Positions 18,816 through 21,240 of a DNA stretch of 64,000 bases are shown piece by piece. Within the stretch, counting starts at the first letter, position 1. Each line of letters begins with the position of its first letter. The notes beneath the pieces are model-generated. The model saw only the letters and a program-made list of their open reading frames with translations, had not been told where the DNA came from and made no database searches. The position numbers and the translations under genes are program-made. This DNA comes from Escherichia coli (GTDB lineage: Bacteria; Pseudomonadota; Gammaproteobacteria; Enterobacterales; Enterobacteriaceae), in the NCBI RefSeq assembly GCF_003790525.1, contig NZ_CP033635.1; one strand, 5' to 3'.

Positions 18816-19556
18816 ATGAAAAAGGTTTTTGCTGTTTCAGTGGTGGCCGCAGCCTGTGTATTTGCAGCAAATGCAGGTGCTGAGGAAGGTAAAAGCGGTT
18901 TTTATCTGACCGGTAAAGCCGGTACCTCTGTGGTGTCACTTTCAGACCAGCGTTTCCTGTCAGGAGATGAGGAAGAAACGTCAAAGTATAAAGGCGGCGA
19001 TGACCATGATACGGTATTCAGTGGTGGTATCGCGGCTGGTTATGATTTTTATCCGCAGTTCAGTATTCCGGTTCGTACAGAACTGGAGTTTTACGCTCGT
19101 GGAAAAGCTGATTCGAAGTATAACGTAGATAAAGACAGTTGGTCAGGTGGTTACTGGCGTGATGACCTGAAGAATGAGGTGTCAGTCAACACACTAATGC
19201 TGAATGCGTACTATGACTTCCGGAATGACAGCGCATTCACACCTTGGATATCTGCAGGGATTGGCTACGCCAGAATTCACCAGAAAACAACCGGTATCAG
19301 TACCTGGGATTATGAGTACGGAAGCAGTGGTCGCGAATCGTTGTCACGTTCAGGCTCTGCTGACAACTTCGCATGGAGCCTTGGCGCGGGTGTCCGCTAT
19401 GACGTAACCCCGGACATCGCTCTGGACCTCAGCTATCGCTATCTTGATGCAGGTGACAGCAGTGTGAGTTACAAGGACGAGTGGGGCGATAAATATAAGT
19501 CAGAAGTTGATGTTAAAAGTCATGACATCATGCTTGGTATGACTTATAACTTCTGA
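18816..19556 (+). CDS. tia: Tia/Hek(Hra1)-family outer-membrane adhesin-invasin (Ail/OmpX-like beta-barrel)
   Basis: 246 aa; signal peptide MKKVFAVSVVAAACVFAANAGA; alternating-residue beta-strands and C-terminal aromatic residue (MTYNF), typical of small OM beta-barrels. RBS GGAGA upstream. Location in a selC island matches the known tia context in ETEC. Confidence 0.75.
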   Translation: MKKVFAVSVVAAACVFAANAGAEEGKSGFYLTGKAGTSVVSLSDQRFLSGDEEETSKYKGGDDHDTVFSGGIAAGYDFYPQFSIPVRTELEFYARGKADSKYNVDKDSWSGGYWRDDLKNEVSVNTLMLNAYYDFRNDSAFTPWISAGIGYARIHQKTTGISTWDYEYGSSGRESLSRSGSADNFAWSLGAGVRYDVTPDIALDLSYRYLDAGDSSVSYKDEWGDKYKSEVDVKSHDIMLGMTYNF

Positions 19557-19633
19557 CGACACTGCTCCTGAACGATAATTGCGTATATTCTGTAATTAAG
19601 ATAATTGCATATCTTCTGCAATTAAACAGAAAC

Positions 19634-19675
19634 ACCCTGCAGTCTATTGCTGCAGGGTTGTCTGTTATCTGTTTT
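19634..19675 (+). terminator. Rho-independent terminator downstream of the tia-like gene
   Basis: Perfect 9-bp stem accctgcag / ctgcagggt with a 7-nt loop, followed by a T-rich tract. Confidence 0.5.
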
Positions 19676-19737
19676 ACAGATAATTTCTGATTTTTATTAT
19701 CCTGTTCTCTTCATAATAATGTTGTCGATATACTCCG

Positions 19738-21240
19738 ATGAATATCAGAAAACTGTTTTGTCCGGGCGACACACCCCGGATTTTATTGTTTTTATTCTTT
19801 TTTGTTATTTCTGTGATAATCACAATTGCATGCGGATACACTGAGAAGAATGCCACAGGAAATGTGCTGCTTCTGTTTCTCCTTCTGCTCCTTGCACACA
19901 GAAATACCCTCACATCCATTACAACGCTGTTATTTCTGTTCTGTTGTGCACTGTATGCGCCTGCGGGTATGACGTACGGTAAAATCAACAACAGTTTTAT
20001 TGTCGCGTTGCTGCAGACCACGGCTGATGAGGCTGCAGAGTTTACCGGGATGATTCCTGTTTATCATTTTCTGGTCAGTGCCGCGATTCTGGTATTCATG
20101 GTGATTTTCTGGCGGACACACCACCGCGGTCACCGTAACTGGCTGGCACTGCTGCTGTTCGTATTATGCTCTGTAAACAGCTGGCCGTTGCGGATGGTTA
20201 AAGGAACTGTTGTGGGGACAACTGACACATTGCGTGAAATGCAACATTATAAACAACTGAGTCAGCACGGGGCTGACAACTGGAAAATCCTGCCGGGAAC
20301 ACCGTTATATGACACAATTGTTATTGTCACTGGTGAGAGTGTGCGCAGGGATTATATGTCGGTATATGGCTATCCCGTGCCAACCACGCCGTGGCTGAAT
20401 ACGGCTCCCGGTTTATTTATTGACGGCTATACATCGGCAGCAGCCAGTACCGTACCTTCCCTGAGCCGGACACTGATTTATGACTATGAGCAGAACCCTG
20501 ACTCCGGCAACAACGTGGTGGCGCTGGCAGCAAAAGCAGGATACAGCACATGGTGGATATCCAATCAGGGAAAGCTGGGGGAGCATGATACACGCATCTC
20601 TGTTATTGCTTCTGATGCGGAGCATACCGTTTTCCTCAAGAAAGGCAGCTTTGCTTCCCGTAAAACGGATGACATGTTGTTGTTACAGGAAACAGAACGT
20701 GCACTGGCGGATAAATCCTCTCCGAAGGTGATATTCCTGCACATGATTGGCTCTCATCCGAATCCGTGTGACCGACTTAACTCCTGGCCGAATCATTACC
20801 TGGAGCAGTATCCCCGAAAGGTTGCCTGTTACCTCGCCAGCATCAGTAAACTGGATAACTTTCTCGGTCAGCTTGATGGTATCCTTCGCCGGCATTCCCG
20901 TCATTTCGTCATGCTTTACTTTTCTGACCATGGGCTGTCGGTCAGCGACAGTGCTAATCCTGTTCATCATGATGGTCATGTGCAGGGAGGCTACAGCGTT
21001 CCCCTGATTATTACCGCCAGTGATATCACGTCTCATCAGTCCGTCAGCAGAAAAATCAGTGCCCGTCATTTCGCAGGTATTTTTCAGTGGCTGACCGGCA
21101 TTCGTACTGAAAATATACCGCCATTCAATCCGCTGACAGACGAAGATAATGAACCCGTTATGGTTTTTAACGGAGAGAGGAATGTACTGGCAGACAGTCT
21201 GAAACCACAGCCTCTGATTCTTCCGGTCAAGGGAAAATAA
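19738..21240 (+). CDS. Sulfatase-superfamily phosphoethanolamine transferase (EptA/YhbX-like membrane protein)
   Basis: 500 aa; hydrophobic N-terminal domain with several TM helices followed by a periplasmic sulfatase-like domain (VIVTGESVRRDYMSVYGY..., HMIGSHPNP..., LYFSDHG). Start codon is uncertain. Confidence 0.65.
   Translation: MNIRKLFCPGDTPRILLFLFFFVISVIITIACGYTEKNATGNVLLLFLLLLLAHRNTLTSITTLLFLFCCALYAPAGMTYGKINNSFIVALLQTTADEAAEFTGMIPVYHFLVSAAILVFMVIFWRTHHRGHRNWLALLLFVLCSVNSWPLRMVKGTVVGTTDTLREMQHYKQLSQHGADNWKILPGTPLYDTIVIVTGESVRRDYMSVYGYPVPTTPWLNTAPGLFIDGYTSAAASTVPSLSRTLIYDYEQNPDSGNNVVALAAKAGYSTWWISNQGKLGEHDTRISVIASDAEHTVFLKKGSFASRKTDDMLLLQETERALADKSSPKVIFLHMIGSHPNPCDRLNSWPNHYLEQYPRKVACYLASISKLDNFLGQLDGILRRHSRHFVMLYFSDHGLSVSDSANPVHHDGHVQGGYSVPLIITASDITSHQSVSRKISARHFAGIFQWLTGIRTENIPPFNPLTDEDNEPVMVFNGERNVLADSLKPQPLILPVKGK

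Follow-up and report, generated by a model that had tools for sequence, protein, structure and literature searches.

A hek-type adhesin gene and an intact yjgX-type phosphoethanolamine transferase gene in the integrase-proximal arm of an Escherichia coli selC island

The Hra family of outer-membrane proteins is composed of Hra1, Hra2, Hek, Hes and Tia, whose members share about 65-90% identity (PMC5539235). Autoaggregation, haemagglutination, adherence and invasion were published for Hek, Tia, Hra1 and Hes (PMC5539235, PMC7545054), and Hek is carried by the pathogenicity island PAI II536 (PMC7545054). Phosphoethanolamine (PEtN) transferases designated 'YjgX or YhbX' are carried by selC, pheU and pheV islands alike (PMC6174562), and 'putative opgE' genes adjoin island integrases near pap (PMC8946752). 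In SE-PAI, the order tRNA-integrase-shiA-sulfatase orf-tia-subAB2 was described (PMC7371111). The gene pair considered here is already known from several papers on pathogenicity islands. Among the characterised PEtN transferases of E. coli, OpgE acts on periplasmic glucans (PMC3818809).

The window, i.e. the whole stretch of 64,000 nucleotides analysed here, contained one such pair, composed of a hek-type and a yjgX-type gene placed in the same orientation and separated by 181 bp.

The adhesin gene and the spacer

18816..19556, + strand: hek-type outer-membrane adhesin/invasin gene (246 aa; Hra family)
19574-19599 and 19600-19625, + strand: two tandem 26-nt repeats directly 3' of the hek stop codon (88% identical)
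19634..19658, + strand: terminator-like G+C-rich hairpin 3' of hek (10 pairs, six of them G-C, weak T-rich tail)
19673..19700, + strand: sigma-70 promoter-like site TTTACA-16-TATTAT (10/12 consensus matches)
19738..21240, + strand: yjgX-type (OpgE-like) PEtN transferase gene (500 aa, intact)

Neither of the two reading frames displayed a frameshift or an internal stop. In public data, the exact hek product was encountered on 240 contigs and its 90%-identity cluster held 605 members; for the yjgX product these figures were 180 contigs and 8941 members. By such strong homology both were judged to be genuine genes, chance ORFs being excluded.

Proteins of the Hra family are outer-membrane beta-barrels of ~25 kDa with a signal peptide, a C-terminal aromatic residue and most of their variation in the exposed loops. 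The protein of the window displayed a signal-peptide-like N-terminus with a hydrophobic leader (MKKVFAVSVVAAACVFAANAGA) and a C-terminal YNF, and differences in its alignment occurred in blocks between conserved strand-like segments. Pfam recognised OMP_b-brl (5e-21, residues 9-246) and Opacity (7e-6), and the PDB sequence search returned a weak match to Neisseria Opa60 and nothing else. Identity reached 98.0% over 246 aa with the corresponding protein of PAI II536 (leuX), compared with 74% for a cluster labelled Hra1 and 62-63% for NCBI-named Tia; cluster mates carry the submitter names Hek or Tia. The initial annotation had assigned the protein to a Tia/Hek family. This assignment was borne out and could be narrowed, on sequence identity, to a Hek allele of the Hra family, so that hek would encode a small outer-membrane beta-barrel adhesin.

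Versions of the 26-nt repeats (GATAATTGCGTATATTCTGTAATTAA and GATAATTGCATATCTTCTGCAATTAA) that differ by substitutions were found next to hek in strains 536 and GF60 and next to tia in GN06667. A Fur-box-like site in these GATAAT-containing repeats was considered and dropped, the hexamer alone matching by eye. The arms of the hairpin read ACCCTGCAG-loop-CTGCAGGGT, and a shorter stem (CCTGCAG...GCAGG) was kept in three other loci. The sole match of an Rfam scan over 18300-21700 was Listeria rli40 on this hairpin; at 26.7 bits it fell far below the gathering score (100) and was taken as chance. The promoter-like site ends 38 nt 5' of the yjgX ATG, and its TATTAT element was invariant in four loci. 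Both the terminator and the promoter are predictions from consensus matches. Co-oriented genes with a terminator and repeats between them had been described initially; this arrangement was recovered here, with the promoter-like site as an addition.

Since the spacer appears to hold its own terminator-like and promoter-like signals, and since either gene also occurs alone, hek and yjgX are presumably transcribed separately and would function independently. We consider it rather probable that hek and the intact, OpgE-like yjgX are independently expressed neighbours that form part of the cargo of a selC island, in the arm next to its integrase.

The transferase: start codon, fold and likely acceptor

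The start codon of the transferase, initially regarded as unclear, could be settled. No in-frame start occurs between the preceding stop and ATG 19738, and this codon precedes the part of the gene that encodes the conserved first membrane helix; together with the next codons it was invariant in four independent loci, and it is also the start used in the RefSeq annotation. Alternative starts were rejected: the next ATG is codon 78, and the internal TTG/GTG codons (17 and 26) would start translation within that conserved helix. Comparison among loci thus supports ATG 19738 as the probable yjgX start; no strong Shine-Dalgarno sequence was seen upstream of it.

Pfam detected a Sulfatase domain (9e-37) over residues 193-446 of YjgX and, weakly, EptA_B_N (9e-5). 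The hydropathy profile showed five hydrophobic stretches within residues 15-154, and the AlphaFold2 model (pLDDT 88.8) placed helices at 12-31, 39-53, 57-80, 108-127 and 135-145. The resulting layout comprises five N-terminal membrane helices (~12-154), a bridging helix and a periplasmic sulfatase-fold domain (193-446). The best fold matches of the model were EcEptC, MCR-1 and NmEptA, with full-length alignments to MCR-1 (9nww) and NmEptA (5fgn); Foldseek against the periplasmic domain of EcEptC gave 1e-19 and a target TM-score of 0.72. Residues E200, T238, H335, H340, D397 and H398 were invariant, and H411 nearly so, among 45 homologues down to 22% identity; the six invariant residues were also conserved in all five K-12 paralogues. 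The initial description as a sulfatase-type PEtN transferase was in agreement with these domain matches, fold matches and conserved residues, and YjgX of the window is, as judged from its sequence, a putatively active PEtN transferase of sulfatase fold whose catalytic residues are all preserved. By homology, this inner-membrane enzyme, with its five helices and a periplasmic alkaline-phosphatase/sulfatase-fold domain, would move PEtN from phosphatidylethanolamine onto the catalytic threonine T238, next to a metal site formed by E200, D397 and H398 with H340 and H411 nearby, and would then hand it to a periplasmic or envelope acceptor.

Among the K-12 paralogues, OpgE was the closest to YjgX (31% identity over residues 20-478, E 1e-74, 234 bits), followed by YhbX (104 bits), EptC (95), EptB (56) and EptA (45); reciprocally, the YjgX of the window was the best match of OpgE in this set. 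Classification by subfamily HMMs had been proposed initially and was carried out, none of the NCBIfam models reaching its curated cut-off. The best of them was the CptA subfamily, with 110 bits against 404, an assignment considered misleading beside the direct comparison with the K-12 paralogues.

The initial annotation had stressed lipid A and antimicrobial-peptide resistance. In that reading, YjgX would be a lipid A or core transferase like EptA, EptB or EptC, lowering surface charge and raising resistance to cationic peptides and polymyxin. The fold and catalytic residues are indeed common to YjgX, EptA, MCR-1 and EptC; the best solved-structure match, by sequence as well as by fold, is the core-heptose enzyme EcEptC; and some relatives are named 'lipid A phosphoethanolamine transferase' in databases, these names being automatic. 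Identity to EptA, EptB and EptC was however 22-23% (22% for EptA, over the catalytic domain only), against 31% along the full length of OpgE. EptA, EptB and MCR models scored 19-69 bits against cut-offs of 493-1250 (EptA, 36.7 versus 660 and 55.8 versus 561; EptB, 51.1 versus 493; MCR, 19-35 versus 1075-1250). Moreover, thousands of ordinary E. coli genomes carry yjgX. The K-12 yjgX deletion was a false positive of a defensin screen (PMC4808223), which is weak evidence as this copy is a pseudogene. A lipid A or core enzyme therefore appears improbable; with OpgE, and not EptA, as the nearest characterised paralogue, we do not favour an emphasis on lipid A and polymyxin.

Given this relationship to OpgE, YjgX would most likely transfer PEtN to osmoregulated periplasmic glucans or to some comparable glycan of the envelope, lipid A being a less likely acceptor. 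With no more than 31% identity to OpgE, and in a species that has an opgE gene in its core genome, YjgX could also act on another acceptor.

Island context, distribution and linkage

17957..18328, + strand: IS3-family transposase remnant bounding the arm distal to the integrase (NCBIfam transpos_IS3 5e-11, C-terminal end only)
21227..21456, - strand: short frameshifted hypothetical ORF of the conserved arm (RefSeq)
21599..22642, - strand: tetratricopeptide-repeat (TPR) protein gene of the conserved arm (347 aa)
23054..24238, - strand: tyrosine recombinase, the island integrase (394 aa; NCBIfam PRK09692 integrase domain 1e-94)
24538..24632, - strand: tRNA-Sec (selC), the island attachment site (ARAGORN)

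The arm is ordered as outer-membrane protein, transferase, short ORF, TPR protein, integrase and tRNA-Sec, in a selC island; the core genes yicJ, yicI and yicH lie beyond selC, on the side opposite to the island. The IS3 remnant is named 'integrase core domain-containing protein' in RefSeq, and the integrase is a tyrosine-type recombinase/integrase in the annotation of strain TUM9803. The short ORF is frameshifted according to RefSeq in TUM9803 and GF60 and is an intact gene of 231 bp in GN06667. The pair is located ~3.5 kb from the integrase that adjoins tRNA-Sec, the transferase 1.8 kb from it, and its G+C content is ~48%, compared with 50.8% in the part of the window that belongs to the core genome. 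Of the horizontally acquired envelope-modification module initially proposed, the acquisition was thus corroborated by the integrase, tRNA-Sec and G+C content; the functional unit was not.

Roughly one in four complete E. coli genomes carried the pair, with hek-like or tia alleles. Between selC and pheU arms, identity was 97% for the transferase, 86% for the TPR protein, 62.5% for the outer-membrane protein and 42% for the integrases. The linkage of outer-membrane protein and transferase was also detected in Salmonella and on two metagenomic enterobacterial contigs, at ~52% (outer-membrane protein) and 57-58% (transferase) identity and with different flanks.

A frameshift that would make the transferase a pseudogene, envisaged initially, was looked for and the window ORF was intact; such lesions are common in other genomes. 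Inactive copies arose through IS2 truncation (K-12), through IS1 and IS4 insertions, and through a frameshift with an internal stop; an IS3 insertion affected the 3' end of yjgX in the otherwise 100% identical strain TUM9803, and about half of the matching sampled genomes held yjgX fragments only. One may thus suspect a functionless or dispensable passenger that decays species-wide and whose intact copy in the window confers no phenotype, to which the want of a strong ribosome-binding site would add. Against this, yjgX of the window is complete and has lost none of its catalytic residues, and the protein was 96-98% conserved between islands whose outer-membrane proteins and integrases had diverged far more. 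Such conservation fits purifying selection wherever the gene is kept, and a mere passenger is considered quite unlikely.

In a true module, the transferase would decorate a component of the envelope, be it LPS core, a glycan or even the adhesin, and thereby support or tune the display or function of Hek/Tia, the pair being co-selected. The two genes are co-oriented, their short spacer is conserved in both hek-linked and tia-linked loci, and the pair was retained with different integrases and tRNA sites. The linkage kept in Salmonella and the metagenomic contigs exceeds what is expected of chance neighbours and leaves room for co-selection. Some members of the PEtN transferase family act on proteins, e.g. 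Campylobacter EptC and Neisseria PptA. Several observations speak against a module. Hes and Hra1, cloned alone into the K-12-derived strain HB101, conferred haemagglutination, aggregation and adherence (PMC5539235), and yjgX of K-12 MG1655 is an IS2-truncated pseudogene. Hra genes without the transferase were found in lambdoid prophages, in a tellurite-resistance island, beside YadA-type adhesins and in Providencia; conversely, transferase homologues of at most 52% identity had no Hra-family neighbour wherever the upstream flank was readable. The transferase was often inactivated by an IS or a frameshift while the outer-membrane protein remained annotated as intact, and the latter diverged to 62% while the former stayed at 97%, unlike what co-evolution would produce. 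A functional module is accordingly rated as unlikely. That YjgX is no redundant OpgE but modifies another acceptor, such as a site in the LPS core, some surface glycan or an outer-membrane protein, and so affects the function or host recognition of adhesins with short barrels, as Hek and Tia, is, in its own right, highly improbable; if true, such an acceptor would explain why the linkage persists from E. coli to Salmonella amid changing surroundings.

Under the preferred reading, that of independently expressed neighbours, the pair is real but ordinary, as many pathogenicity islands of E. coli carry such neighbours at their integrase end. Its value resides chiefly in annotation: the outer-membrane protein was named as a Hek allele, the transferase as an intact yjgX with its start codon settled, and expectation is moved from lipid A and polymyxin resistance towards OpgE-like glycan modification. 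A GWAS of bloodstream infection associated unitigs mapping to yjgX with a urinary portal of entry, perhaps for no other reason than that the island also carries the pap operon (PMC8946752).

Comparison with known enzymes and loci

OpgE (YbiP), the nearest characterised paralogue, shares with YjgX a membrane domain and a periplasmic sulfatase-fold domain (PMC3818809). Identity to it is low, yjgX of the window is not at the core ompX-opgE locus, and the linker between membrane and catalytic domains lacks ~30 residues relative to OpgE and ~44 relative to EptA, which could change the choice of acceptor. EptA, MCR-1 and EptC have in common with YjgX the fold, the five-helix membrane domain, the catalytic Thr and the Glu/Asp/His metal site; they differ by their 22-23% identity and by scores far below every curated family cut-off.

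PAI II536 (leuX, UPEC 536) displays both genes in the same order and orientation relative to integrase and tRNA, with a homologous spacer; its outer-membrane protein and transferase are 98% and 96% identical to those of the window. It differs by its insertion at leuX instead of selC, by another integrase, by an AAA-domain protein in the place of the TPR gene and by its downstream cargo (pap/prf, hly).

The tia-linked pheU islands and SE-PAI share the arm, composed of tia, transferase, short ORF, TPR protein, integrase and tRNA-Phe (PMC7371111). Their pheU transferase is 97% identical to that of the window, with conserved spacer and start codon. These loci differ by their outer-membrane allele, Tia (62.5%), nucleotide similarity beginning in the 3' end of this gene (~19363), and SE-PAI additionally carries shiA and subAB2.

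The K-12 yjgX (b4575, KpLE2/leuX region) resembles YjgX of the window with 91% amino-acid identity over 177-496 and 77% over 93-178 and is, like it, found near a tRNA-linked integrase. Its 5' end is missing (IS2 adjoins), it is frameshifted and it has no adjacent Hra-family gene. As judged from these alignments, K-12 yjgX is a pseudogene orthologous to the transferase gene of the window, which is intact.

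Gene pair, spacer and outer-membrane protein

The feature was a real, correctly read and ordinary pair: hek followed by an intact yjgX, carried on the conserved integrase-proximal arm of a selC island. Both the identities and the context were assigned with very high confidence. Arm features were as follows:

18816-19556, + strand, outer-membrane protein (OMP) ORF, 246 aa
19574-19625, two tandem 26-nt repeats in the spacer
19634-19658, G+C-rich hairpin with a weak T tail in the spacer
19673-19700, promoter-like site TTTACA-16-TATTAT in the spacer
19738-21240, + strand, phosphoethanolamine (PEtN) transferase ORF, 500 aa
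21227-21456, short frameshifted ORF
21599-22642, - strand, TPR-protein gene
23054-24238, integrase gene
24538-24632, tRNA-Sec (selC)

The two ORFs were co-oriented and separated by 181 bp. Their coordinates and orientation in the initial annotation were borne out, as were the repeats and the terminator placed between them (here a terminator-like hairpin). Both proteins were abundant in public data: exact matches occurred on 240 contigs for the OMP and 180 for the transferase, and their 90 %-identity clusters counted 605 and 8941 members, respectively. Upstream of hek, a TCGA/ATCGAT-rich palindromic tract (18701-18733) displayed overlapping inverted repeats of 14-18 nt, about 85 bp before the start codon, and was directly followed by a promoter-like site (18738-18767).

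The OMP matched the Pfam model OMP_b-brl (5e-21) and, more weakly, Opacity and OmpA-like models; its only solved relative found by sequence was Neisseria Opa60. Database searches returned a dense and very polymorphic E. coli family; one of its clusters (62 % identical) bore the name 'invasion outer membrane protein Tia', and submitters labelled members of near-identical clusters either Hek or Tia. In uropathogenic strain 536 the leuX island, PAI II536, is listed as a Hek carrier (PMC7545054). The first 50 kb of this island encode a single Hra-type OMP, which shares 98.0 % identity with the window protein across the full 246-residue length. This points with very high confidence to a Hek allele of the Hra family (Hra1, Hra2, Hek, Hes and Tia; PMC5539235) and agrees with the Tia/Hek call made initially.

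The transferase and its possible acceptor

The transferase displayed a Sulfatase domain (9e-37, residues 193-446) and a weak EptA_B_N match. Identity to the K-12 pseudogene yjgX was 91 % for residues 177-496 and 77 % for residues 93-178. In K-12 the gene adjoins IS2 and lacks its 5' end, whereas the window copy was intact; by sequence comparison it can be regarded with very high confidence as the intact orthologue. Pseudogene status, raised initially as an objection, did not apply to this complete 500-aa product. Among 45 homologues (down to 22 % identity), E200, T238, H335, H340, D397 and H398 were invariant and H411 nearly so; all but H411 were also invariant across the five K-12 paralogues. 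Hydropathy revealed five hydrophobic segments within residues 15-154, and an AlphaFold2 model (mean pLDDT 88.8) displayed five membrane helices, a bridging helix and an alpha/beta domain, with E. coli EptC, full-length MCR-1 and Neisseria EptA as best solved-structure matches. Catalytic residues, membrane segments and fold matches together indicate that the PEtN transferase proposed initially is complete and probably active.

The start codon, initially considered unclear, could be placed at ATG 19738. This was the first start after the upstream in-frame stop and the one chosen by RefSeq, and together with the next ten codons it was almost invariant at four independent loci (selC, leuX, pheU). 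All homologues displayed a short N-terminal tail followed by a conserved first membrane helix (ILLFLFFFVISVIITIACGY in the window transferase); later candidate starts fell inside or after this helix. No strong Shine-Dalgarno sequence was found for ATG 19738.

Subfamily classification by HMM, as suggested initially, reached the curated score of no NCBIfam model, while comparison with the five K-12 paralogues placed OpgE nearest (31 % identity over residues 20-478, E 1e-74), followed by YhbX, EptC, EptB and EptA (22 %). OpgE in turn had the window transferase as its best match within the compared set. OpgE decorates osmoregulated periplasmic glucans with phosphoethanolamine (PMC3818809). Because this nearest paralogue modifies glucans, the acceptor would more likely be a periplasmic or envelope glycan than lipid A, although an OpgE-like acceptor, resting on 31 % identity, is proposed with low to moderate confidence. 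The initial emphasis on lipid A is not favoured, and the lipid A models (EptA, EptB, MCR) scored far below cut-off. The only functional mention of YjgX found in the literature concerned a defensin screen in which a K-12 yjgX deletion, affecting the pseudogene, was a false-positive control (PMC4808223).

Island setting and distribution

Core genes yicJ, yicI and yicH lay beyond selC, on the side away from the island, and the two genes displayed ~48 % G+C against 50.8 % in the core part of the window. Together with selC, the integrase and the arm genes, this identifies the pair as cargo at the integrase end of a genomic island at selC, in line with the horizontal acquisition initially suggested. 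Left of the pair (15520-18328), an intact gene for a PhoX-family phosphatase (659 aa) came first, then a degraded piece of an iron ABC-transporter permease gene and, nearest to hek, the remnant of an IS3 transposase. This succession marks the mosaic junction with the conserved arm, and more mosaic cargo lay beyond it. Further left (5099-13532), an allantoin-region-like cluster (carbamate kinase family, xanthine permease, YlbE family, FdrA, AllH-family subunit), accompanied by an ankyrin-repeat protein and a LysR regulator, appears to be a paralogous metabolic module carried by the island. The TPR protein (347 aa) occurred in E. coli as well as Shigella and displayed sub-threshold matches only (T3SS chaperone SctY, 25.9 bits versus 70; PEP-CTERM TPR protein). 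The window is E. coli DNA, and TUM9803 was the only genome 100 % identical to it, except for an IS3-family element near the 3' end of its transferase gene (10694-11922 of its locus L001, ~21200-21300 in window coordinates); this insertion yields a 488-aa product. As the window does not have it, its DNA stems from a very closely related strain or from an earlier state.

A 2.9-kb query over both genes matched 3004 of 5426 complete E. coli genomes, 1050 of them with at least 80 % coverage. The content of the best match was inspected in 60 evenly spaced matching records:

Content of sampled records
21 of 60: hek-like OMP and full-length transferase
7 of 60: full-length transferase and divergent OMP allele (six annotated tia, one 'outer membrane protein')
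~20 of 60: truncated transferase only, K-12 type included
11 of 60: short downstream segment only

Roughly a quarter of complete E. coli genomes therefore carry an OMP-transferase pair. The arm recurred at pheU in a tia-linked example (tia, transferase, short ORF, TPR, integrase, tRNA-Phe). Its transferase was 97 % and its TPR protein 86 % identical to those of the window, but its OMP only 62.5 % and its integrase 42 %; the spacer was conserved, including repeats, hairpin core and -10 element. These identities indicate a block common to islands with different integrases and tRNA sites, with the OMP as its hypervariable part. Nucleotide similarity between hek- and tia-linked loci started at ~19363, within the last ~65 OMP codons, and ran to ~21500; upstream, the alleles were too diverged for megablast. 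Such OMP divergence beside so conserved a transferase looks as if alleles had been replaced through recombination, or as if strong diversifying selection had acted on the exposed portion of the protein.

Linked cargo and known arrangements

The initial annotation saw in the pair an envelope-modification module. The two genes were indeed kept together outside the arm on one Salmonella and two metagenomic contigs (OMP 52 %, transferase 57-58 % identical), the transferase following ~210 bp after the OMP amid differing flanking genes, and co-selection may occur. However, each gene also occurred without the other: transferase homologues of at most 52 % identity, where their upstream flank was readable, lacked an Hra-family neighbour in E. 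coli plasmid-/ICE-like DNA, Erwinia, [Enterobacter] lignolyticus and a metagenomic contig, while Hra-family genes stood alone in lambdoid prophages, in a tellurite-resistance island, beside YadA-type adhesins and in Providencia. The transferase was often inactivated where the OMP was still annotated intact, and was also a pseudogene at loci without an adjacent OMP gene. Hes and Hra1 cloned singly into K-12-derived HB101 confer their phenotypes (PMC5539235), and the spacer holds its own terminator-like and promoter-like signals. Hek and the transferase are thus linked cargo and most likely act independently of each other, functional independence being held with moderate confidence.

The 52 %-identical E. 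coli paralogue (511 aa, 1955-member cluster; loci L010, 4346-6536, and L011) lay in plasmid-/ICE-like DNA (DotM, hok/gef repeats, exclusion protein) and was preceded by a DUF2569 protein, not an Hra-family OMP. In K-12, opgE lies beside the small beta-barrel OMP gene ompX (convergent, 48 bp apart; L004, 5451-7598), yhbX near tRNA-Leu leuU (L005), and eptB adjoins tRNA-Pro proK near the putative OMP gene yhjY (L006). This recurring closeness to small OMP and tRNA genes is curious and may be coincidence.

RefSeq already annotates both genes, generically, and the acceptor of YjgX is the sole point beyond what is already known of the pair. The OMP-transferase arrangement is already in the literature: SE-PAI is described with the order tRNA-integrase-shiA-sulfatase orf-tia-subAB2, with 'orf-tia' as ancestral core (PMC7371111); 'putative opgE' genes adjoin island integrases near the pap operon in a bloodstream-infection GWAS (PMC8946752); and in LAA, hes lies ~3.3 kb from the pheV integrase (PMC5539235).
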